From: an uncultured Candidatus Saccharibacteria bacterium
GTDB lineage: Bacteria > Patescibacteriota > Doudnabacteria > UBA920
NCBI GenBank assembly: GCA_964436545.1
Contig: CAYTCJ010000005.1
Coordinates: 12,713-76,712 of the forward strand
Direction of reading: 5' to 3'
DNA length: 64,000 nucleotides
The position numbers were made by a program, and so were the translations under genes. This document shows positions 855 through 55,414 of the stretch, one piece after another (within the stretch, counting starts at the first letter, position 1; each line of letters begins with the position of its first letter). A model generated the notes under the pieces. It worked only from the letters and a program-made list of their open reading frames with translations, had not been told where the DNA came from and did no database searches.

Positions 855-3083
855 ATGAAAATTACAACAGCTAAAAAATTATTTTTTGCTTTATTGGTCT
901 TGGCTTTGCTTTCGGTTTTTGGGTTGTTTAGGGATTTGGCTTATCCGTTTATTACCAGTAAAGTGTTGTGGTTTCGAAGCGCCGTGCTGTTGGCGTTGCC
1001 GATTTATTTTTATCTGCTCAGTTTGGAAAAATCCATTCGGCCCAATTTAAAACATCCTTTGCATTGGGTAGTGTTGGCTTTTTTTGCCATTAACCTTATT
1101 AGCTCCGTATGGGGGGTAAATTTTCATCGAAGCGTGTGGGGTAATTATGAACGTATGGGGGGAGTGTGGTATTTGGGGCATTTAACGTTGCTGTATTTTT
1201 ATTTGGATGCTTTGGCCAAATACAGTAATTTTAAGTTTCAACAAATTTTAAAACTCTTGGCTCTCTTGGGCGCTTTAGGCGGGTTATATGCGGTACTTAC
1301 CAAACTGGGTTTTCCTGCTTGGCCGTTTCCGGACGATTCTTTGCCGGCTCGGGCTTCCGGGTTTTTTGGAAACCCGATTTTCTTTGCCAGTTTTTTAATT
1401 TTTCCTTTTACTTTAAGTTTATTTTTTCTTAAACAAGCTGAGGACAAAAGAGCGTTTCGGTTTTGGCTTTTGGCATCGGCTTTCAATTTTTTAGGTATTT
1501 ATTTCAGCGCGACTCGGGGAGCGCTTTTGGGGTTATTGGTGGGTTTGGGTTTAGGGTTGTTAGTTTGGGCCTTAATGATTGAAGAAAAAAAATACAAGCT
1601 TTATGGCTTATTAGCCATTGCCGGGAGTTTATTAGTGGTATTAATGTTGTTTGTGTTTAGTGGTGCTTTTGCACCCGGTTCAGTGGTGCGGAGGCTTACG
1701 GATTTTGGCGATTCCAACACTCGGGCGCGTATTTTACAATGGGAGGCGGGACTGAAAGGTTTTAAAGACCATCCGGTGCTGGGGGTGGGGCCGGAAAATT
1801 ATTATGTTATTGGGAATAAATATTTTAACCCCAATATCTACCAATACGACAGAAGCTGGTTCGATAAACCACACAACTATCCTTTAGAAGTTTTACTTAC
1901 TTCCGGATTGTTAGGGTTTCTTGCCTATGTAATCTTAATTGGTATGTCCGTGGGCGGAGCGTATCGGGCTTTAAAGCACCAAATTCTTAGCCGGCTGGAA
2001 TTTGCAATTTTATTAGGCGGAATTACGGCCTACCAAGTTCAAAATTTATTTGTGTTCGATACTGTAAGTGCCAGTATGGCCTTTTATGTATTTTTGGCGT
2101 TTACCGCCTTTTTATGGCAAGCCGACAGAGTGGAGAATAAATCGGGAGAGGTTAAAGCGAGTTCCGAAATGGCCACCTACGGACTTATCCTGTGTGGCTT
2201 AGTGGTGGTTTGGGTTTGGTACATCACCAATTTTTTACCGGCCCAAGCCATGGCTAAATTAAACACCGGGGTATCTATTGGGCTAAGAAATCCGGTAGAA
2301 GCCAGAGAAGGTTTTAAAAATGCTTATCGAGCGGATATGAATTTAGATTTAACCGAAACTGCATCTAAATATGAAGAATTTGCCAGTGAGTTAGCCATTG
2401 TTAATCAAAAACCGGAAGACAGAGCTTTTGTTTTAGAGACTGTAAAAGATGTAATTGCGGTCTTGGAATCGGCATTAAAACAGAATTCCAACGATCCTAT
2501 TTTATGGTTTAAGCTCACAAATATGAAATCGACTTTAAAGCACATTACGCAAGCCGAATACTCTAAGGAGATTGAGGAAGTGGCGTTAAAGTCTGTAAGT
2601 TTGGCGCCGAATCGGGTAGAGCCCAGATATTATTTAGTGCAAGCTTTGCAAGTAAAGCGGGATTTGGACCAGGCGGTTAGGGCCCAAATTGAAGTAATTA
2701 AAATTGACTATGCCAACCCCTTTAATTTTTGGCGCATGGCCTTACTGTATAGAGATTTTGGCGATTTGCCGAGGGCATATAATTTGGCAAGGTTTGCCAG
2801 ACAAAACGGGTATGAGTTTAGAAATTTAGCCGAGGCTCAATGGATGGCCAAATATTATTCCGATTTGAACCAATTTAACGAATTACAAAAAGCTTACGAA
2901 GAGTTAATTAAAAACAATTTGGCGGATTTTCAGACTTATGCCAATTTAGCGACTGTGTATGCTAAGTTAGGGGATAAAGACAAAGCTCGCGCCACGGCGC
3001 TTAAAGTTTTGGAATTGGAACCCAAAGCCAAAGCCGATGTGGAATTGTTCTTGAAAAAACTCAACCTCGGCGAACAGTTTTAA
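855..3083 (+). CDS. Polytopic membrane protein with a Wzy_C (O-antigen ligase/PglL/TfpO-type) domain and a C-terminal TPR region; candidate O-oligosaccharyltransferase
   Basis: There are 10-12 predicted TM helices. The Wzy_C-like core is GNPIFFASF...SATRGALLGLLVGLGLG, with a periplasmic loop FKDHPVLGVGPENYYVIGNKYFNPNIYQYDRSWFDKPHNYPLEVL. The roughly 300-aa C-terminus has TPR-like repeats (LAPNRVEPRYYLVQAL..., ANLATVYAKLGDKDKA). It is a paralogue of the gene at 6337-8475. Confidence 0.7.
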   Translation: MKITTAKKLFFALLVLALLSVFGLFRDLAYPFITSKVLWFRSAVLLALPIYFYLLSLEKSIRPNLKHPLHWVVLAFFAINLISSVWGVNFHRSVWGNYERMGGVWYLGHLTLLYFYLDALAKYSNFKFQQILKLLALLGALGGLYAVLTKLGFPAWPFPDDSLPARASGFFGNPIFFASFLIFPFTLSLFFLKQAEDKRAFRFWLLASAFNFLGIYFSATRGALLGLLVGLGLGLLVWALMIEEKKYKLYGLLAIAGSLLVVLMLFVFSGAFAPGSVVRRLTDFGDSNTRARILQWEAGLKGFKDHPVLGVGPENYYVIGNKYFNPNIYQYDRSWFDKPHNYPLEVLLTSGLLGFLAYVILIGMSVGGAYRALKHQILSRLEFAILLGGITAYQVQNLFVFDTVSASMAFYVFLAFTAFLWQADRVENKSGEVKASSEMATYGLILCGLVVVWVWYITNFLPAQAMAKLNTGVSIGLRNPVEAREGFKNAYRADMNLDLTETASKYEEFASELAIVNQKPEDRAFVLETVKDVIAVLESALKQNSNDPILWFKLTNMKSTLKHITQAEYSKEIEEVALKSVSLAPNRVEPRYYLVQALQVKRDLDQAVRAQIEVIKIDYANPFNFWRMALLYRDFGDLPRAYNLARFARQNGYEFRNLAEAQWMAKYYSDLNQFNELQKAYEELIKNNLADFQTYANLATVYAKLGDKDKARATALKVLELEPKAKADVELFLKKLNLGEQF

Positions 3084-3090
3084 ACCCAAT

Positions 3091-3132
3091 AATCATTCTT
3101 ATATTCTGCAGAATATAAGAATGATTTTGTAT
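3091..3132 (+). terminator. Rho-independent terminator: 17-bp perfect palindrome followed by a T tract
   Basis: aatcattcttatattctg|cagaatataagaatgatt, then ttgtatat. Confidence 0.6.
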
Positions 3133-3206
3133 ATAAGTAACTAGAGTTGATAAAAATTTTCGGTTTGATATACTAATAAAAATTACTAAAATTTAACGAA
3201 ATAAAT

Positions 3207-3515
3207 ATGACAAAGAAACAAAAAATTTGGCTAGGGAATTTTTCAGTATTATTTTTTACTTATCTATTTCCATTATTTATATTTAATAAATATCAAAATA
3301 AAATAAATGATACGAACTTTGTAAAATATTCTGTATTTTTTATTCTATTATGTGGCTCAATATTTTTATTATATTTTAATATAAAAAATTATAACAAAGA
3401 AAAAATTAATAAGTCATTATATATATTTTTTGGACTGTTTGGGGTGTTAGGATTTTTATACTCAATCTCAATATTATTTTTGTTATTTTCATTTAGACAT
3501 GGGATTGGCTTTTAA
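3207..3515 (+). CDS. Small hypothetical three-TM membrane protein lying in an extremely AT-rich islet
   Basis: A 102-aa ORF with three hydrophobic segments. The surrounding 3084-3533 region is over 78% AT, lower in GC than its flanks. Confidence 0.35.
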   Translation: MTKKQKIWLGNFSVLFFTYLFPLFIFNKYQNKINDTNFVKYSVFFILLCGSIFLLYFNIKNYNKEKINKSLYIFFGLFGVLGFLYSISILFLLFSFRHGIGF

Positions 3516-12652: not shown

Positions 12653-12718
12653 TTTGGAATTTTGCGTCGATAATGTTATAATCAAGTGATAAAAATTATT
12701 TAACCATTAAAATTTTCT

Positions 12719-48016: not shown

Positions 48017-49246
48017 TTGAATATAGTTGTGTTTGATTTTGTTTACAACGCCATCACCAAGACCGGACAAAGGGTTTCGGGGAATATTCAAGCTCTAAAC
48101 CCCGAATCTGCCGGACATATGCTTAAAGAGCAAGGACTTTTACCTATAGAAATTTCTTTGGCTAAAAGCAATGCTTCGGTTTTTAGTTTTTTTAAAAATA
48201 TTACCACCATTTCTTTAGAAGAAAAAATTGTGTTTGTGGATAATTTGGCCATTATGCTTAAAAGTGGCATTGCGATCACCCGAGCTTTACAAATTCAGGT
48301 TAAACAAACGCAAAATCCAAGATTTAAAACTATCCTGTCGGATATTGCCAGCTTGGTTGAAGCTGGAAAATCTTTGGGTGAAAGTTTAGAAAAACACAAC
48401 AATATTTTCTCCAATATTTTTATTAGCATGGTCAAAGTGGGGGAGTTATCGGGAAATTTAGATAAATCCTTAGAGTATTTAACTATCCAGCTTCACCGGG
48501 AAGCGGATTTAAAATCTAAAGTCCGGGGCGCCATGATTTATCCCGCAGTCATTATTAGTGCTATGGTGATTATTGGAATCCTGATGTCGATTTTTGTTTT
48601 ACCTAAGCTTACCAGTATTTTTAAAGATTTTGGTTCGGCTAAACTACCAGTGATGACCAGAGTGGTTATAACCATTGCAGATTTTATGAGTGCTAACGGA
48701 GTGTTGATGATTGGTTTATTAGTCGCCAGTATTTTTGGCATAATTTTTGCAAATCGGACTTATCAAGGAAAAAAGTTTTTTGATTGGTTATTTATTAAAA
48801 TGTTGGTAATCGGTCCGATTGTTAAAAAAATTAATTTAGCCGTTTTTGCCAGAGTTTTAAGTTCCTTGCTTAAAAGTGGAATTTCGGTGGTTGAGGCCTT
48901 GGAGGTATCGGCTAATTCCATAGACAGTTTACCGTATAGGGAGTTGGTTTTGGAGAGTTCTAACCAGGTCCGATTGGGAAAAAATTTAACTCAAGTGTTA
49001 AGTCAAGATGAGCAATTATTTCCGGTATTAGTGGTGCAAATGCTTCAAGTTGGAGAAGAATCGGGTACGGTGGAGGAAATTTTAGGCCAGTTAGCCGTGC
49101 ATTATGAGGAAGAAGTTGATACAATAATGAAGAACCTCTCTTCAATTATTGAACCTTTGTTATTGTTAGTAATTGGTGGGGTAGTGGGGATTCTAGCCGT
49201 AGCTTTAATTTCCCCCATATATAATATTAGTCAATCGATTAAATAA
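48017..49246 (+). CDS. pilC: Type IV pilus platform protein (PilC/GspF family)
   Basis: Two GspF repeats and three TM segments, N-terminal VYNAITKTGQRVSGNIQALNPESAGHMLKEQGLLPIEI. Confidence 0.75.
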   Translation: MNIVVFDFVYNAITKTGQRVSGNIQALNPESAGHMLKEQGLLPIEISLAKSNASVFSFFKNITTISLEEKIVFVDNLAIMLKSGIAITRALQIQVKQTQNPRFKTILSDIASLVEAGKSLGESLEKHNNIFSNIFISMVKVGELSGNLDKSLEYLTIQLHREADLKSKVRGAMIYPAVIISAMVIIGILMSIFVLPKLTSIFKDFGSAKLPVMTRVVITIADFMSANGVLMIGLLVASIFGIIFANRTYQGKKFFDWLFIKMLVIGPIVKKINLAVFARVLSSLLKSGISVVEALEVSANSIDSLPYRELVLESSNQVRLGKNLTQVLSQDEQLFPVLVVQMLQVGEESGTVEEILGQLAVHYEEEVDTIMKNLSSIIEPLLLLVIGGVVGILAVALISPIYNISQSIK

Positions 49247-50296
49247 ATGAAGTTTTTTAATTCCATACAAAAAGGTTTTGGATTAGACATTGGCGGAAAT
49301 TCCATAAAATTTTTGGAAATTCAGGCAACGCAGAATGCAACTAAAATTATGGGGATGAGCGATGTGGCTTTACCTAAGGGTTTAATAGTGAACGATACCA
49401 TATCTGATCCCAAAACTTTAATTTATTTGTTGCACTCGGCGTTACAAAAGCCAGAGTTTGGCAAGTTCAGTAATTTACCAGTCTGTGTTTCTTTGCCAGA
49501 GTCAAAATCTTTTGTGCGGGTTATACAATTACCTTTAATGCGTGAGAGTGAAATTGAAACCGCAGTACCAGTTGAGGCGGAGAGTTTTATTCCGTTACCG
49601 ATTAATCAAGTGTATTTAGATTGGCAAGTGTTGGCTACTAAGGAAGATAAGCTGGAAATTTTAATTATTGCTTCACCTAGGAGTTTTGTTGATGGGTATT
49701 TGAGCATTTTTGATGAAGCCAAATTAGATGTTTGTGCTATGGAAGTGGAATCACAAAGTTGTCATCGAGCTTTGATTCCGCGCAAGTCCCAGACCACCAG
49801 CCTGATAGTGGATATAGATAGCTTTCGAACCAGTTTAATAATGATAGAAAAGGGCAGTTTACAATTTACTTCCTCAATTCCCATAGCCGGAAGCAGTTTT
49901 ACCGATTCCATTGCTAAAACTTTGGGCGTGTCAGGACAAAAGGCGGAATTAATTAAACGGACAGTCGGTTTGGCCAATACTCCTGAGTATCCTAATTTAA
50001 GATCTTCGCTGGATAATTTAATTAAGAGTTTGTCTGCGGAAATTAAAAATATATTAAAATTTCATGCCGAACACTCCAATAATAAGATTGAAAGTTTAAT
50101 TTTAGCCGGTGGGGGAGCCAAAGCTAAAAATCTTGCCGAAATTTTAAAAAATGAATTTTTGAACGAACAAATTAATGTAGAATTAGGCGACCCGTTTATT
50201 AATTTATCCAATTTGGTTTCTCCGCCTTTAGCTAAATTTGAAGCTTTAAATTTTACAACAGCCGTCGGTTTGGCTTTAAGAAACTTACATTTATAA
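49247..50296 (+). CDS. pilM: PilM (actin-like ATPase-fold pilus assembly protein)
   Basis: GLDIGGNSIKFLEI at the N-terminus, about 350 aa, in position after pilC. Confidence 0.7.
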   Translation: MKFFNSIQKGFGLDIGGNSIKFLEIQATQNATKIMGMSDVALPKGLIVNDTISDPKTLIYLLHSALQKPEFGKFSNLPVCVSLPESKSFVRVIQLPLMRESEIETAVPVEAESFIPLPINQVYLDWQVLATKEDKLEILIIASPRSFVDGYLSIFDEAKLDVCAMEVESQSCHRALIPRKSQTTSLIVDIDSFRTSLIMIEKGSLQFTSSIPIAGSSFTDSIAKTLGVSGQKAELIKRTVGLANTPEYPNLRSSLDNLIKSLSAEIKNILKFHAEHSNNKIESLILAGGGAKAKNLAEILKNEFLNEQINVELGDPFINLSNLVSPPLAKFEALNFTTAVGLALRNLHL

Positions 50297-50328
50297 TCAA
50301 CTAATGAACCCAGTAATACAACCCCCAT

Positions 50329-50609
50329 ATGTTCTTTTGGATTTATGTTTTAGAAAGTATAAAGAATGGAGAAAGATATATTGGTTATACAAATAATCTG
50401 AAAAGAAGATTAGAAGAACATAACAAGGGATGGCTCTAAGCACAAAATTTATGATACCATTTAAATTAATATATTTTGAAGGATGTACTAATTCCGAAGA
50501 TGCCCAGCGTCGGGAAAGATATTTAAAAACCCATCAAGGTCGCAAATTTTTGGGATTAAGATTAATCAAATATAAATATTCCAGACAACCGTTTGGAATG
50601 GGAGGTTGA
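50329..50609 (+). pseudogene. GIY-YIG nuclease (UPF0213-like small endonuclease) gene disrupted by a 1-nt frameshift, inserted between pilM and the pilN-like gene
   Basis: Frame 1: MFFWIYVLESIKNGERYIGYTNNLKRRLEEHNKGWL*, a textbook GIY...YIG motif. The continuation is in the -1 frame: ...LSTKFMIPFKLIYFEGCTNSEDAQRRERYLKTHQGRKFL, matching the C-terminal half of the domain. A one-base insertion near 50433 would restore a ~93-aa ORF. Confidence 0.6.
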
Positions 50610-51172
50610 TATACTGGGTGAAAATTATTAATTTATTACCAAAAAGCCGTCAAGTTGAATTTTTTTATAGCAAGCTTTTTGTATTGGTATTAAAATTGTT
50701 TTGGATTACCGGATTCGCTTTTGCTTTAGTGTTAATTGGGCAGTTTGGCGTTAAAATCGCTTTACAGTCTAAAATTAAGCACGTGGAAGCTAACATTAGT
50801 GAATTACAAGCCTTTTCCAATTTGGCAGATAATGCCAAGGTTAAAAATCTACTTACTGAAAAAAACGCCTTAATTTTGGATTATAAAACTTTAAGCCAAA
50901 ATATACCCAAGAATTCTAAAGTAATTAGAGCTTTTGCTCCTTTAGTTCCGGAAGGTGTGAAAATTAAACAAATGAAGATTAATGCAACGAGTAAACAAAT
51001 AGAAATTTACGGTTTTGCTTTAACCAGAGAATTAGTAATTAAACTTTACGACAATGTGGTTGAACAAAGTAAATTGTTCCCCAATATAGACTACCCCTTA
51101 GAAAACGTGGCTAAACCGGCTGAAATTAATTTTCATTTTACTTTTAACATTAGTCCGGAATTATTGCAATGA
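50606..51172 (+). CDS. PilN-like bitopic membrane protein
   Basis: TTG start. Single N-terminal TM helix (LFVLVLKLFWITGFAFALVLIGQF) followed by about 140 aa extracytoplasmic, in position after pilM. Confidence 0.45.
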   Translation: MIYWVKIINLLPKSRQVEFFYSKLFVLVLKLFWITGFAFALVLIGQFGVKIALQSKIKHVEANISELQAFSNLADNAKVKNLLTEKNALILDYKTLSQNIPKNSKVIRAFAPLVPEGVKIKQMKINATSKQIEIYGFALTRELVIKLYDNVVEQSKLFPNIDYPLENVAKPAEINFHFTFNISPELLQ

Positions 51173-51723
51173 ATAAGCATTTCACCAAAAAACAAAAATT
51201 CTTTGTCGGTATGAGCGTTTGGCTCGCGTTTACTTTTTTGGTATTTGTTTATTTTTTACCCATTGAGCATAAAAGCAATTTGGAAGTCATTGAAACCATT
51301 AAGACTTTAAGCACGAAAGAACAAGGTTTATTAGCCGAAAAAAATTCCTACTTACAGGCCAAGCAGGCGTTGGATGATTTGGCCAAATTAGAAATTCAAC
51401 CAGAGAATTTTTTTAGTAAAAATATTACCTTAGTAAAAGAAATAAAAAAGTTAGAGAGTATGGCGAGAGATTTAACTGTGGAATTTACTTTGTCCGGGAT
51501 TTCCGGAAATTTACAATCTGCCACCAAGGCCCCAACTGTTTCCAATATTTTTTTGGTGCCTTATTCCATTCATTTAGAAGGAAGTCTGGATAAATTAGTT
51601 ACCTATATTGAATATTTGGAAAACTTGGAATACATAAATACAGTAAGCAGTTTGGACATTAGTGCCACCAATGATAATTCGGTAAGTGTAAATTTATCCG
51701 CTAATTTTTACGTAATCAAATGA
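51169..51723 (+). CDS. PilO-like bitopic membrane protein
   Basis: N-terminal TM helix, a coiled-coil segment, about 184 aa, overlaps the previous gene by 4 nt. Confidence 0.4.
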   Translation: MNKHFTKKQKFFVGMSVWLAFTFLVFVYFLPIEHKSNLEVIETIKTLSTKEQGLLAEKNSYLQAKQALDDLAKLEIQPENFFSKNITLVKEIKKLESMARDLTVEFTLSGISGNLQSATKAPTVSNIFLVPYSIHLEGSLDKLVTYIEYLENLEYINTVSSLDISATNDNSVSVNLSANFYVIK

Positions 51724-52182: not shown

Positions 52183-52259
52183 GCACTCGTAGCTCATTTG
52201 GATAGAGCGCTTGGCTTCGAACCAAGAGGTAGTAGGTTCAAATCCTACCGAGTGCACCA
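52183..52259 (+). tRNA. tRNA-Arg (anticodon TCG)
   Basis: Cloverleaf with acceptor gcactcg/cgagtgc, D-arm agctcatttggatagagc, anticodon loop cuUCGaa, T-arm ggttcaaatcc, and 3' CCA. Confidence 0.85.
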
Positions 52260-52396: not shown

Positions 52397-52472
52397 GGGT
52401 CGGTAGCTCAGTTGGTAGAGCAGCGGACTCTTAATCCGCTTGTCGTGGGTTCGATCCCCACCCGACCCACCA
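52397..52472 (+). tRNA. tRNA-Lys (anticodon CTT)
   Basis: Acceptor gggtcgg/ccgaccc, D-arm tagctcagttggtagagc, anticodon loop cuCUUaa, T-arm gtgggttcgatccccac, CCA. Confidence 0.85.
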
Positions 52473-52676: not shown

Positions 52677-52831
52677 TTTTTATGGGACAAATTACCATTC
52701 AAATTACCAAAAACAAACAAAAGGCATCTGTAAAGATGCGTTTTGGTTTTGGTAATAGATGGTTTTGGATTTTAGATAAATCTTTCTCCACCTGCTGCCA
52801 AAACAGCAAGGACAATTTAAAGGAGAAATCA

Positions 52832-53818
52832 ATGAATATTGCTATCGTAGGTGCGACTGGCGCCGTTGGGCAGGAGATGCTCAAGGTGTTAGAAGTCAGG
52901 CGTTTTCCTGTGTGGCGCTTGTCGCTTCTGGCATCCGCGCGTTCCGTGGGCAAGAAGTTAAATTTCTGTGGGCAGGACATCGCCATCACCGAGCTGACTC
53001 AGGATTCGTTCAAGGGCATTGACATAGCGCTCTTTAGCGCTGGTGGGAGGGTTTCCAAGGAGTTTGCTTCGCACGCGGTGCGGGCAGGCTCTATAGTGAT
53101 TGACAACTCCAGCGCGTTTCGGCAGGACCCCGAGGTGCCACTCGTGGTGCCGGAAATCAACGCCAAGGACATGAAGTGGCACAAAGGAATCATCGCCAAC
53201 CCGAACTGCACCACGGCCATCACACTCATGGCACTTTGGCCACTGCACCAGTCGTTCGGCGTGAAGCGCATCTTTGCCTCCAGCTACCAAGCCGTCTCCG
53301 GTACGGGCGCCAAGGCAATTGAGGAACTGAAGCGTCAGGTCGGCCAGATCGCCAATGGCCAGCCGGTGACGAAGGAAGTTTATCCGCACCAGATCGCCTT
53401 CAACGTCCTGCCCCACGTGGACTCGTTTCTCGACACCGGCTATACGAGGGAGGAGATAAAGATGCAGAACGAAGGGCGAAAGATTATGCACCACGCGACG
53501 TTCCGCGCGAGCGTGACATGCGTGCGCGTGCCCGTATATCGGGCGCATTCGGTCGCAGTGAGCGCGGAGTTTGAAAGGCCGGTGACGGTGGAGGAGGCGC
53601 GCGCGGTGTTGGCAAGAGCGTCGGGGTTGGATGTTCTCGATGACCCGGCGAACAACATTTATCCAATGCCACTGGATGTGGCAGGTCGGGACAACTGCGC
53701 CGTGGGTCGGCTCCGTCTTGATTGCGCACTGGACAACGGTCTCACCTTCTGGGTCTGTGGAGACCAGCTCCTCAAAGGCGCGGCGCTCAATGCCGTGCAG
53801 ATTGCCGAATTGCTGTAG
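52832..53818 (+). CDS. asd: Aspartate-semialdehyde dehydrogenase
   Basis: MNIAIVGATGAVGQEM and the active-site IIANPNCTTAI, with RBS aaaggag 7 nt upstream. The start was set at the ATG at 52832, since the 5' extension in the track is low-GC non-coding leader. The CDS is about 65% GC against about 35% in the flanks. Confidence 0.85.
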   Translation: MNIAIVGATGAVGQEMLKVLEVRRFPVWRLSLLASARSVGKKLNFCGQDIAITELTQDSFKGIDIALFSAGGRVSKEFASHAVRAGSIVIDNSSAFRQDPEVPLVVPEINAKDMKWHKGIIANPNCTTAITLMALWPLHQSFGVKRIFASSYQAVSGTGAKAIEELKRQVGQIANGQPVTKEVYPHQIAFNVLPHVDSFLDTGYTREEIKMQNEGRKIMHHATFRASVTCVRVPVYRAHSVAVSAEFERPVTVEEARAVLARASGLDVLDDPANNIYPMPLDVAGRDNCAVGRLRLDCALDNGLTFWVCGDQLLKGAALNAVQIAELL

Positions 53819-53828
53819 AGCAATCAAC

Positions 53829-53861
53829 CCGTAAGCTTGAGTTCCACCCTCAAGCTTACGG
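53829..53861 (+). terminator. 13-bp perfect hairpin followed by a U-rich stretch
   Basis: ccgtaagcttgag-ttccacc-ctcaagcttacgg, then caaatctttt. Confidence 0.4.
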
Positions 53862-53967
53862 CAAATCTTTTGAGTTATGGGAGAGATGTTTATTTCTCCC
53901 ATGCCCCAAAGGCAGTAGATTTCAAAAAGAAAAGGAGGTCCTCATCTACAAGGGTGGGGGCAAAAAT

Positions 53968-55296
53968 ATGATAGTTATGAAATTCGGCGGTAGCTCGGTC
54001 GCCAACGCGGAAAAGATCCGTCAGGTCTTCGAGATCGTCAAGGGCCGGCTTCCGCGGAAACCGCTGGTGATTGCCAGCGCGTTCCGCGGCGTGACGGACG
54101 ACCTCTTCAAGCTGGGCGAGGAGGCGGTCCGGGGTGTCGCCCCCTCCATCGACCCCATCCGCAAACGCCACCGGGACTGCCTGAAGGAGATGGGGCTTGA
54201 CCTCGACCTGCTCAAGAGGGAGCTGGACGAGCTTGATGTCCTGCTCAAGGGCATCTCTCTGGTCAAGGAGCTCAGTCCCCGGTCGCTGGACTACGTCGTC
54301 TCGTTCGGCGAACGGTTCTCGACCCGCATCATCGCGGCCTACTTCACGAAGCTCGGTATCGCGGCCGAGCAGCACGACGCGTTCGACCTGGGCCTTCTCA
54401 CGTCGGACGACTTCGGCGGCGCGCAGCCCCTGCCCGAGGCCGACTCCGAGATCAAGAAGAACGTCCTGAAGCTGACGAAGCTCCCTATCGTGACTGGCTA
54501 CATCGGCAAGACGAAGAGCGGGAGCATCACGACGCTGGGCCGGAACGGCTCGGACTACTCCGCCACGACCTTCGGCGCCGCGATCGACGCCGAGGAGATC
54601 GAGATCTGGAGCGACGTGGATGGCATCATGACCGCCGATCCGCGCCTCGCCCCCAGCGCGAAACCGCTCGAGGCACTCACGTTCGACGAGGCCAGCGAGC
54701 TCGCGTACTACGGCGGGAAGGTGCTCCATCCGGCCACCATCGGGCCGGCGATCCGTAAGGGTATCACGGTGCGGTGCCTCAACACGTTCAAGCCCGACCA
54801 CCCCGGCACGGTGATCGTCTCCAGGATCAAGCAGGGCGGGCCAGCGATCAAATCGATCGCCCACAACCTGAATAACCTGATCATCACGATCTCGTCGGCG
54901 CGGATGCTCCAGGGTCACGGCTTCCTGGCCCGCATCTTCGAGGTCTTCGGTCGCCACAGGATCTCGATCGACATGATCGCCACCAGCGAGGTGTCGGTCT
55001 CGGTGACGCTCGACTCCAACCGTAACCTCGAGCTGGCCGTCGAGGAGCTTAAGAGGTTCGCTGACGTATCGATCGAGAAGGATAAGTGCATCATCTGCCT
55101 GGTCGGCGAGGGGATCCGCACCACGCCGGGGATCGCGGGCGATGTGTTCCAGGCGCTGAAGGACGCGCAGGTAAATATCTTGATGATATCCCATGGCGCC
55201 TCTAAGATTAACATCGCCTTCGTGGTGGATGACGCCGACTGCGGCCGGGCCGTTCAGGCGCTCCACCGCAAGTTTTTCGAGCGGGCTGGGGGGTAG
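53968..55296 (+). CDS. lysC: Aspartate kinase
   Basis: MIVMKFGGSSVANAEKI, the amino-acid kinase fold and C-terminal ACT domains. The start was set at the ATG at 53968 (in frame with the track ORF), removing 82 non-homologous residues. High GC. Confidence 0.85.
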   Translation: MIVMKFGGSSVANAEKIRQVFEIVKGRLPRKPLVIASAFRGVTDDLFKLGEEAVRGVAPSIDPIRKRHRDCLKEMGLDLDLLKRELDELDVLLKGISLVKELSPRSLDYVVSFGERFSTRIIAAYFTKLGIAAEQHDAFDLGLLTSDDFGGAQPLPEADSEIKKNVLKLTKLPIVTGYIGKTKSGSITTLGRNGSDYSATTFGAAIDAEEIEIWSDVDGIMTADPRLAPSAKPLEALTFDEASELAYYGGKVLHPATIGPAIRKGITVRCLNTFKPDHPGTVIVSRIKQGGPAIKSIAHNLNNLIITISSARMLQGHGFLARIFEVFGRHRISIDMIATSEVSVSVTLDSNRNLELAVEELKRFADVSIEKDKCIICLVGEGIRTTPGIAGDVFQALKDAQVNILMISHGASKINIAFVVDDADCGRAVQALHRKFFERAGG

Positions 55297-55354
55297 CCCC
55301 CGGCTCGCTCCACACACCAAAGGAGGTGATTATATAGAGTTAGGTTAAGCGAAG

Positions 55355-55414
55355 GGCGGTCATTGGTCGGAAAGCTCACAAGAGCCTACTGGGAAAGCCA
55401 TGACCGCCTTTTCC
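55355..55414 (+). terminator. Terminator-like structure: 9-bp GC stem with a large loop, followed by a T tract
   Basis: ggcggtcat ... atgaccgcc, then ttttcc. Confidence 0.4.

Follow-up and report, generated by a model that had tools for sequence, protein, structure and literature searches.

A frameshifted GIY-YIG gene at the pilN start codon is very probably an inactivated copy of a 310-bp cassette that rides on start codons in candidate phyla radiation bacteria

The T-even phages carry free-standing endonuclease genes that lack a translation initiation region of their own, and the expression of these genes is limited by RNA hairpins and translational coupling (PMC2988022). Here we describe a GIY-YIG nuclease gene, split in two by a frameshift, that lies next to pilN in a 64,000-nt stretch of DNA from an uncultured Candidatus Saccharibacteria bacterium (GTDB lineage Patescibacteriota; Doudnabacteria; UBA920). 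The whole stretch, hereafter the window, covers positions 12,713 to 76,712 of the forward strand of contig CAYTCJ010000005.1 in assembly GCA_964436545.1. We consider it very probable that the feature is one copy of a 310-bp mobile cassette, which inserted at the start codon of pilN and has lost its activity recently, and that it belongs to a family riding on start codons in bacteria of the candidate phyla radiation (CPR). In brief, the cassette is a nuclease open reading frame (ORF) between two complementary arms, flanked by a short duplication of the target site.

Like the seg (GIY-YIG) and mob (HNH) genes of the T-even phages, the cassette is a selfish nuclease gene wedged between co-transcribed host genes, with borrowed expression, presence or absence at a fixed site and decay of the ORF. 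Seg proteins, in contrast, have at least 200 aa and a DNA-binding domain that reads a long site, and their genes have no terminal inverted repeats, target duplication or miniatures and do not sit on start codons. The best matches in sequence and fold are the UPF0213/COG2827 proteins (BH0048, 1ZG2; EF2693, 1YWL; E. coli YhbQ) and Slx1, which have the same size and a single domain; Slx1 is, by the titles of its PDB entries, a structure-specific nuclease for branched DNA. Unlike the cassette, these are single-copy cellular genes. We know of no report of UPF0213, COG2827 or Slx1 genes with flanking inverted repeats, target duplications or placement on start codons.

Inverted ends, a short duplication, near-identical copies, miniatures reduced to their ends, and ends that are co-transcribed as hairpins are shared with insertion sequences bounded by terminal inverted repeats (TIRs) and with miniature inverted-repeat transposable elements, such as IS630/Tc1-type elements and the Correia elements of Neisseria. 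The cassette differs from TIR insertion sequences in that it encodes a GIY-YIG protein only, is far below the size of any autonomous insertion sequence and inserts at a functional site and not at a sequence motif. Its arms also covary freely, which suggests selection on pairing and not on a sequence bound by protein. To our knowledge no autonomous mobile element smaller than ~310 bp has been described. REP/REPIN sequences with their RAYT genes likewise combine a small nuclease-type gene between inverted hairpin repeats with many ORF-less hairpin copies between genes; they differ in that RAYT is of the HUH/Y1 type of IS200/IS605 and usually occurs once per genome, and in that REPs lie after genes and not on start codons and have no target duplication. 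The mobA/gene 60 bypass cassette and the hairpin-bridged ribosome-binding site of gene 38, both of phage T4, are precedents for ribosomes that cross an insertion or use a distant initiation signal. These are single cases in one phage gene, whereas the cassette family has hundreds of copies on many different genes, a junction of the form stop-N9-10-start and a helix enclosing 300 nt. No description of the cassette architecture was found in the searchable full-text literature, and the nearest published remark concerns GIY-YIG ORFs in non-intron insertions of CPR rRNA genes (PMC11270868).

A preliminary description, made from the letters of the window, had recognized two short ORFs that together encode a UPF0213/GIY-YIG domain and are separated by a missing base near 50433. 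Both observations, and the identification as a frameshifted small gene of the UPF0213 type, are borne out by the following features.

50329 to 50439, forward strand: ORF A, the N-terminal half of the GIY-YIG nuclease (36 aa, MFFWIYVLES...HNKGWL*), with the GIY and YIG motifs, R27 and E30-H31, and a premature TAA.
50430 to 50609, forward strand: ORF B, the C-terminal half of the nuclease (59 aa, MALSTKFMIPFKLIYFEGC...FGMGG*), with its stop TGA (50607-50609) inside the 3' arm.
50425 to 50433, forward strand: frameshift site, one base missing in AAGGGA-TGG (window sequence AAGGGATGG); a single-column gap against loci L003, L007, L002 and L008.

ORF B is read in the -1 frame relative to ORF A. Against the Pfam GIY-YIG profile (PF01541), ORF A alone matches positions 2-33 (E 2.7e-10, 40.8 bits) and ORF B positions 46-74 (E 9e-4); joined, they give a protein of 93 aa that matches positions 2-74 of 78 (E 1.6e-17, 64 bits vs a cut-off of 22.6), and to which ORF B matches at 98% (tblastn). 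Full-length relatives of the joined protein have 93-102 aa, are 65-90% identical and all come from Patescibacteria/CPR assemblies. The nearest intact relative, P0001, has the same length of 93 aa and is 90% identical. All 26 columns that are invariant in a 45-member family alignment are kept in the window copy, including Y6, G19, R27, E30, H31 and E63, spread over the two frames. It is thereby confirmed, at a level well above chance, that the two ORFs are halves of one 93-aa GIY-YIG nuclease. The alignment of the DNA with intact relatives places the single gap at 50425-50433. In the window ORF A stops at 50437-50439, and ORF B, starting at 50430, ends at the canonical TGA of the family before pilN.

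The nuclease gene is the middle part of a unit that begins and ends with complementary arms and that carries, in addition to the terminal helix (H1), two internal helices (H2 and H3).

50304 to 50396, forward strand: 30-codon ORF (MNPVIQPPYVLL...) opened out of frame by the old pilN start codon, ATG 50304-50306; cut off from pilN and running into the element.
50305 to 50308, forward strand: 5' target-site duplication TGAA, which flanks both sides of the element and is single in the empty site of L087 (GGTGAAAATT).
50309 to 50618, forward strand: probable mobile cassette of 310 bp (5' arm, nuclease ORF, 3' arm), a conserved block with identical bounds in ~77 loci.
50309 to 50328, forward strand: 5' arm of H1, CCCAGTA / ATA / CAACC-CCCAT, with one T fewer than its 3' partner and relatives; CAACCCCCAT at 50319-50328.
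50328 to 50340, forward strand: 5' strand of H2, TATGTTCTTTTGG, holding the nuclease start codon; pairs with 50410-50422 in the minimum free energy (MFE) fold, with covariation in the family.
50410 to 50422, forward strand: 3' strand of H2, TTAGAAGAACATA, codons of the conserved L-E-E-H motif; from the MFE fold and family covariation.
50506 to 50510, forward strand: 5' strand of H3, AGCGT, in the A-Q-R-R codons; from RNAalifold and pair counts on 66 elements, with one pair a wobble and one broken in the window.
50589 to 50593, forward strand: 3' strand of H3, CCGTT; from RNAalifold and pair counts on 66 elements.
50598 to 50618, forward strand: 3' arm of H1, ATGGGAGGTTG / ATA / TACTGGG, reverse complement CCCAGTA-TAT-CAACCTCCCAT; covariation in the family.
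50619 to 50622, forward strand: 3' target-site duplication TGAA, matching the 5' copy.

The 5' arm thus holds a second 1-nt lesion of the window copy (CAACC-CCCAT vs CAACCTCCCAT), and the MFE fold still closes the element through this lesioned arm. No further copies or solo arms were found in the 64-kb window by tblastn, blastn or a search for the arm motif.

The host genes on either side form part of a type IV pilus operon, pilMNO.

49247 to 50296, forward strand: pilM, the upstream host gene, stop TAA 50294-50296 (Pfam PilM_2, E 3e-43; NCBIfam TIGR01175, 164 bits vs a cut-off of 133).
50618 to 51172, forward strand: pilN-like gene, 184 aa (MKIINLLPKSRQ...), start GTG 50618; N-terminus and length as in L087 and L003/L007; weak match to Pfam PilN (19.2 bits).
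51169 to 51723, forward strand: pilO-like gene, the downstream host gene; weak match to Pfam PilO, syntenic in L003, L007 and L087.

PilM scores above its NCBIfam cut-off, the Pfam scores of PilN and PilO are below threshold, and the product of the GTG at 50618 begins with MKIINLLP. The sequence INLLP at the N-terminus of PilN is the motif that binds PilM.

Excising the element together with one TGAA restores ...TAATCAACTA ATG AAA ATT ATT AAT TTA TTA CCA, which translates as MKIINLLP. After the insertion, pilN reads GTG AAA ATT (MKIINLLPK), its first G being the last base of the element and the TG stemming from the duplication. The preliminary description placed the insertion in the gap between pilM and pilN; the TGAA copies at 50305-50308 and 50619-50622 place it within the start codon region of pilN. 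The same description suggested comparing the pilM-pilN junction among relatives, and both empty and occupied sites were found. The empty site is on metagenome contig L087, the sole relative returned when metagenomes were scanned with PilN, where pilM-pilN-pilO is 78% identical to the window at the nucleotide level and has no element. Here a spacer of 11 nt separates the pilM stop from GTGAAAATTATC, and TGAA is single. PilN of L087 has a GTG start, 184 aa and the sequence MKIINLLPKQRQ, beginning MKIINLLPK. Because L087 PilN starts with MKIINLLPK and has TGAA once, we assign the pilN start of the window to GTG 50618-50620, which gives an N-terminus identical to that of the empty-site relative, and not to the TTG at 50606 that overlaps the nuclease stop and from which the gene had been thought to restart.

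At the same pilN site an intact copy is present in L003-L005. The GTDB species representative closest to the window, L007, has the cassette at the same pilN start (2294-2575), with an in-frame TGA at codon 27 (…NNIKS*FEEH…); this nonsense codon is a second, independent inactivation at the pilN site. With L087 empty and L003 carrying an intact copy at the same site, the view that mobile DNA records a past insertion next to pilN stands. The earlier interpretation was thus right in outline and wrong in detail, having also missed the complementary arms, the structured mRNA and the 5'-arm lesion. Compared with L003/L007, the window has a nucleotide identity of 89-90% in the element and of 77-79% in the flanking pilM, pilN and pilO; at synonymous third positions 21% differ in the element vs 43-44% in the flanks (p 1e-4). 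The lower divergence of the element reflects either its arrival at the site after the lineages split or an RNA structure that constrains silent sites. In L002/P0003 the equivalent of the old ATG is in frame with the nuclease (MNPVIQPPIMFFY). We also observed that L006 (190-680) has the element with pilN downstream and a peptide deformylase gene, not pilM, upstream, which may have arisen by recombination of two copies or by chimeric assembly at the repeat. The pilN start is mis-called downstream of the element in L003 (1212-1676; 154 aa, not 184 aa) and in L001 (1933-2286).

The bounds of the element were seen by aligning the window with loci that hold its closest relatives in three upstream contexts, namely pilM, a deformylase gene and recF. 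The conserved block begins ~20 nt 5' of the ORF and ends just past the stop codon. When a single genome was scanned for each species, 408 relatives were found, and the loci of 80 were retrieved. About 400 copies from Patescibacteria genomes have the cassette architecture. Nearly all 80 have the same ends, with (T)ATG CCCAGTA ATA CAACTTCCAG and then the ORF on the 5' side, and CTGGAAGTTGA TATACTGGG (T)ATG followed directly by a long host ORF on the 3' side. The direct repeats that flank the element are TATG (36 loci), ATG (18), ATGA (5) and TGTG (1, with a GTG host start on both sides), and also TGAA, TGGA, TGC and TGCAA. Of the 38 loci with this T at the 3' junction, 36 also have a T at position -4 on the 5' side, vs 7 of the 18 loci whose 3' junction has none (p 1e-5). 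Because this T tracks the 3' junction, the repeats are true target duplications of 3-5 bp that lie outside the element.

In ~73 of 77 loci a long ORF starts with the ATG or GTG found at the 3' junction. For ten host ORFs the Pfam matches start at profile positions 1-3 of unrelated families, including the Fpg N-terminal domain, nucleotidyl transferase (NTP_transferase), thymidylate kinase (Tmk), phosphoglycerate mutase (iPGM), transaldolase, dUTPase and the DnaX and RadA types, which identifies the codon at the junction as the one with which the host gene natively begins. The cassette precedes ~70 different housekeeping genes and is always co-oriented with the host gene. Random insertion at TATG followed by selection would be expected to leave many intergenic copies; among the ~77 loci no copy was found away from a start codon. 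In 60 of 75 loci the reading frame of the upstream start codon runs without a stop into that of the nuclease, which explains the MPSNTTS... extensions of many database proteins.

Several further observations on the family were made. Some host genes recur across genomes (fpg three times, and comM-like, EamA-like membrane protein and pilN genes twice each, among the target sites of L007-L086). In about 20% of the targeted genes the second codon encodes Pro (ATGCC...), a beginning that is similar to the 5' junction of the element (ATG|CCCAG) and may reflect a target preference. Sub-families L067, L077, L079 (~2980-3260), L084 and L086 have perfectly complementary 20-nt arms without the ATA/ATA loop and a TAG or TAA stop inside the arm, and more distant sub-families have other arm sequences in the same ATG-arm...arm-ATG layout. 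Locus L002 (5001-5334), after recF in a dnaA-dnaN-recF region, has the 5' arm and the ORF and lacks the outer 3' arm (TATACTGGG), with unrelated sequence past the stop and the contig end 25 nt further on. Some of the metagenome-assembled genomes behind L021, L024, L028, L037, L054, L066, L070 and L075 are titled Gammaproteobacteria, Bathyarchaeia or Methylomirabilis, which are probably submission names or the result of mis-binning. An exact 18-nt match to the consensus 5' arm occurs in IMG/VR viral contigs L088, L089 and L090, the only three among 2.9 million contigs.

The arms, of 20 nt as a rule, are reverse complements that form 7 bp, an ATA/ATA internal loop and 10 bp. Over 70 loci the 17 pairs of H1 are 97.9% paired, and 11 of them have changes in both partners (89 cells). 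The observed value was not attained in any of 500 shuffles, and slid registers are 18-46% paired. RNAalifold on 66 full elements gives the three helices H1, H2 and H3. In H2, (A/G)TG TTC TTC TA pairs with TA GAA GAA CA(T/C), the L-E-E-H codons ~80 nt downstream; the nuclease start codon and codons 2-3 are paired with the E-E-H codons, and the start codon is thus buried in a helix. Compensatory changes in H2 link silent changes of Phe codons with changes of Glu/Lys codons (TTCTTT/AAAGAA in 15 cases, CTCTTC/GAAGAG in 5, TTCTAC/GTAGAA in 4). The start codon also covaries with the His codon, with 39 ATG/CAT, 17 GTG/CAC and ~10 discordant combinations (Fisher p 1e-13). H3 pairs AAACGC with GCGTTT in the 3' half. 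Taken together, H1, H2 and H3 have 34 pairs that are 96.5% paired, 20 of which change on both sides (181 cells), again with none of 500 shuffles reaching this value and with slid controls at 36-45%. Single-sequence folds of the window copy (z -3.8) and of L035 (z -6.6) have H1 closing the whole element and H2 present. H2 and H3 join coding segments, and the simplest reading of them is mRNA structure. No Rfam family overlaps the element at E<=1 in six full elements.

Copies at unrelated genes of one genome are in some cases nearly identical. The pair L068/L071 is 100% identical over 309 nt with unrelated flanks, and over ~310 nt L012/L016 are 97.7% and further intragenomic pairs 94.6% and 92.7% identical, also with unrelated flanks. 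Such copies are the result of recent movement. Tandem copies sharing a single start-codon repeat at their junction (...TATACCGGG TATG CCCGGTAATAC...) occur in L064 (3001-3562) and L082 (2960-3277). In addition there are ORF-less miniatures at the start of long host ORFs, with 60-135 bp between the same arms and a TATG duplication. Each of the following has a terminal helix of 7 bp, ATA/ATA and 9-11 bp.

L021, 2086 to 2215: miniature.
L055, 5694 to 5825: miniature.
L058, 4062 to 4186: miniature.
L027, 2920 to 2985: miniature.
L056, 1232 to 1300 of the reverse complement, minus strand: miniature.

Since the ORF-less miniatures keep only the arms, the arms probably have a role in cis in movement.

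The protein compares best with minimal GIY-YIG proteins. A family profile searched against PDB sequences matched UPF0213 protein BH0048 (1ZG2) at E 1.3e-8, and also EF2693, and matched SLX1 at 1e-3. An AlphaFold model (predicted local distance difference test, pLDDT, 81) has three strands plus helices in the GIY-YIG alpha/beta fold, and with this model Foldseek gave 1ZG2 (7e-5), several nuclease domains of Slx1 (2e-3), I-TevI (0.35) and UvrC (1.1), with 1ZG2 and Slx1 at probability 1.00. Going by profile and model, the protein is a minimal GIY-YIG protein of the UPF0213/Slx1 type, the catalytic domain alone and a predicted nuclease. Sequence and fold searches found no DNA-binding domain in the 93 aa. 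At 50% clustering the family is essentially one representative within 2127 small GIY-YIG clusters at E<=1e-10. Searches of Pfam, NCBIfam and PHROGs found no transposase of a known class (DDE, DEDD, HUH, Ser, Tyr), the GIY-YIG gene being the only ORF, and PADLOC gave no match to a defence-system component at E<=1e-3 for the window protein, P0001 and P0026. In NCBIfam there was only a sub-threshold match to the intron-endonuclease model TIGR01453 (24 bits vs a cut-off of 56), and in PHROGs only weak matches of the N-terminal motifs to phage GIY-YIG homing endonucleases. A group I intron-encoded nuclease of the I-TevI type, or a known ribozyme, was rejected on the basis of the missing Rfam match, the TIGR01453 score and the lack of space for a ribozyme core outside the ORF. 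It should be noted that database entries label the nuclease 'excinuclease ABC subunit C'.

Based on these observations, we suggest the following mechanism. The cassette would have no expression signals of its own, and would be translated from the captured host start codon or, in the ATGA and TGAA subtypes, after a short upstream ORF, with H2 keeping the internal nuclease start buried. The 3' arm contains the nuclease stop at a distance of 9-10 nt from the displaced host start, so that ribosomes terminating there could begin anew on the host gene. An alternative route for ribosomes may be the closed H1 hairpin, which in the miniatures may bring the host leader beside the displaced start codon. 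With such a hand-over, expression of the host gene would continue and the insertion would do almost no harm. Movement would be a DNA event that needs the arms in cis and is probably catalysed by the nuclease acting on folded or paired arms and not on a long recognition sequence. As the arms covary freely and the protein is a Slx1-like catalytic domain only, recognition of paired or folded ends is the most economical assumption. In the window copy the nuclease would no longer be made, with TAA following after 36 codons, and the RNA architecture is kept; we speculate that coupling to pilN could still proceed via the stop of ORF B.

The family combines traits of homing endonuclease genes with traits of MITE-like elements (miniature inverted-repeat transposable elements), and there is a substantial chance that it represents a new class of mobile element. 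Of the features expected of a TIR transposon it has inverted ends, a duplication, multiple copies and non-autonomous derivatives, and it lacks a known transposase. We put forward tentatively a more specific proposal, which is possible rather than probable: an undescribed class of prokaryotic element in which a bare Slx1/UPF0213-type GIY-YIG protein is the only mobility protein and acts by structure on a folded terminal helix, and which targets start codons, borrows host initiation and returns the ribosomes via its RNA architecture, with a freshly dead copy at pilN. On this proposal the protein would add a new transposase chemistry to DDE, HUH, Ser, Tyr and Cas1. If the family-level reading is true, hundreds of cassette copies exist across CPR/Patescibacteria genomes, and they would show how a selfish gene can occupy the start codon, the most sensitive position of a gene, and leave that gene alive. 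The family would then be a natural system for termination-reinitiation or hairpin-bridged initiation, and would suggest a job for the enigmatic minimal GIY-YIG proteins of the UPF0213/YhbQ type. For annotation of the affected genomes it means mis-set starts (pilN), eight leader codons fused to the nuclease (MPSNTTS...) and a wrong product name. The meaning of the window taken alone is modest: one copy is recognized as dead, the start of pilN is corrected and the insertion is dated.

Several points weigh against the reading of the feature as an inactivated, start-codon-riding cassette. We infer that the protein is active as a nuclease, which protein moves the element, and each stage of the translational hand-over. 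Few of the captured start codons (11 of 72) are preceded by a Shine-Dalgarno-like motif, and stop-restart coupling is not available to the miniatures. The target sites of the loci showed no consensus other than (T)ATG and a leader rich in A/T. Counts of wobble pairs, G-U vs A-C, are 3 vs 8 in H1, 18 vs 22 in H2 and 12 vs 4 in H3, and for H1 they do not separate selection on RNA from selection on DNA. The ratio of nonsynonymous to synonymous change (Ka/Ks) between the window copy and L003 is low, which fits a very recent lesion and equally an intact gene with a sequence error. Such a 1-nt sequencing or assembly error is possible, the only other record of the frameshift being a Logan contig whose source data may be those of the window.

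That the gene is intact in the organism, with the missing base an error and the copy live, is nevertheless unlikely in our view. The retention of every invariant residue would agree with it, as would the divergence from L003, which is mostly silent (85 of 94 residues identical), and the indel adjoins a G run. The only further assembly in which the frameshift is seen is the k-mer based Logan assembly of run SRR11567520 (L001, 2288 nt), which is identical base for base to window positions 48686-50973, frameshift included, and argues against an error, yet may share the reads of the window. In other samples no frameshifted allele was found beyond this one Logan contig; the organism is also present in SRR11567528, where its contig stops short of the element. 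The same copy has a second, independent 1-nt deletion in its 5' arm. Decay is moreover the norm in the family, the nuclease ORF being intact in 58 of 72 copies and disrupted in about one-fifth, including the nonsense codon of L007 at the same site. With two 1-nt deletions, in the ORF and in the 5' arm, and few other changes, we read the window copy as recently inactivated, as far as its sequence indicates.

Could the cassette be an ordinary free-standing homing endonuclease gene, spread by double-strand-break repair between alleles, with the arms serving as an RNA device that limits translation? Some lineages carry the element at this site and another, at the same distance, lacks it, and similarity is higher within the element than in the flanks, both as expected of a homing gene. 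Recurrent hits on the same genes across genomes (fpg, comM-like, pilN) and the weak PHROG matches to GIY-YIG homing endonucleases point the same way, and so does the precedent of the phage free-standing endonuclease genes, which without initiation regions of their own use coupling and RNA hairpins (PMC2988022). Homing, however, leaves no target duplication, whereas here 3-5 bp is the rule, and the element has inverted ends. A protein of 93 aa without a DNA-binding domain is also poorly suited to a long homing site, and neither near-identical copies at unrelated genes of one genome nor ORF-less miniatures that keep only the arms are in line with homing. We therefore regard this explanation as improbable and favour the mobile cassette.

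A programmed -1 ribosomal frameshift joining ORF A and ORF B into a low level of full nuclease, which the preliminary description had raised as a possibility, is highly improbable. The overlap of the two ORFs (50422-50439) does hold C AAG GGA, where the Gly tRNA in the A site might pair again after a shift to the -1 frame, and there would be a biological advantage in keeping the amount of a toxic nuclease low. This sequence is not a slippery heptamer of the form X XXY YYZ, however, and the P-site Lys tRNA would mispair on CAA. L003, L002, L008 and ~58 others read through uninterrupted, and no stimulatory structure specific to the window copy was found.

CPR bacteria take up DNA through type IV pili, and the location between pilM and pilN might suggest a resident, non-mobile nuclease of a pilus or competence operon that acts on incoming DNA, but this is extremely improbable, since the same cassette precedes ~70 unrelated housekeeping genes, is absent from the pilM-pilN junction of L087 and is broken in both the window and L007.

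Elsewhere in the window, positions 52900-55400 form an island of 55-67% GC in a genome of ~36% GC, which may stem from recent horizontal transfer or from a chimeric assembly. The island begins ~200 nt downstream of tRNA-Arg (52183-52259) and tRNA-Lys (52397-52472), and its two long ORFs at 52682-53818 and 53722-55296 appear by eye to be aspartate-semialdehyde dehydrogenase-like and aspartokinase-like.

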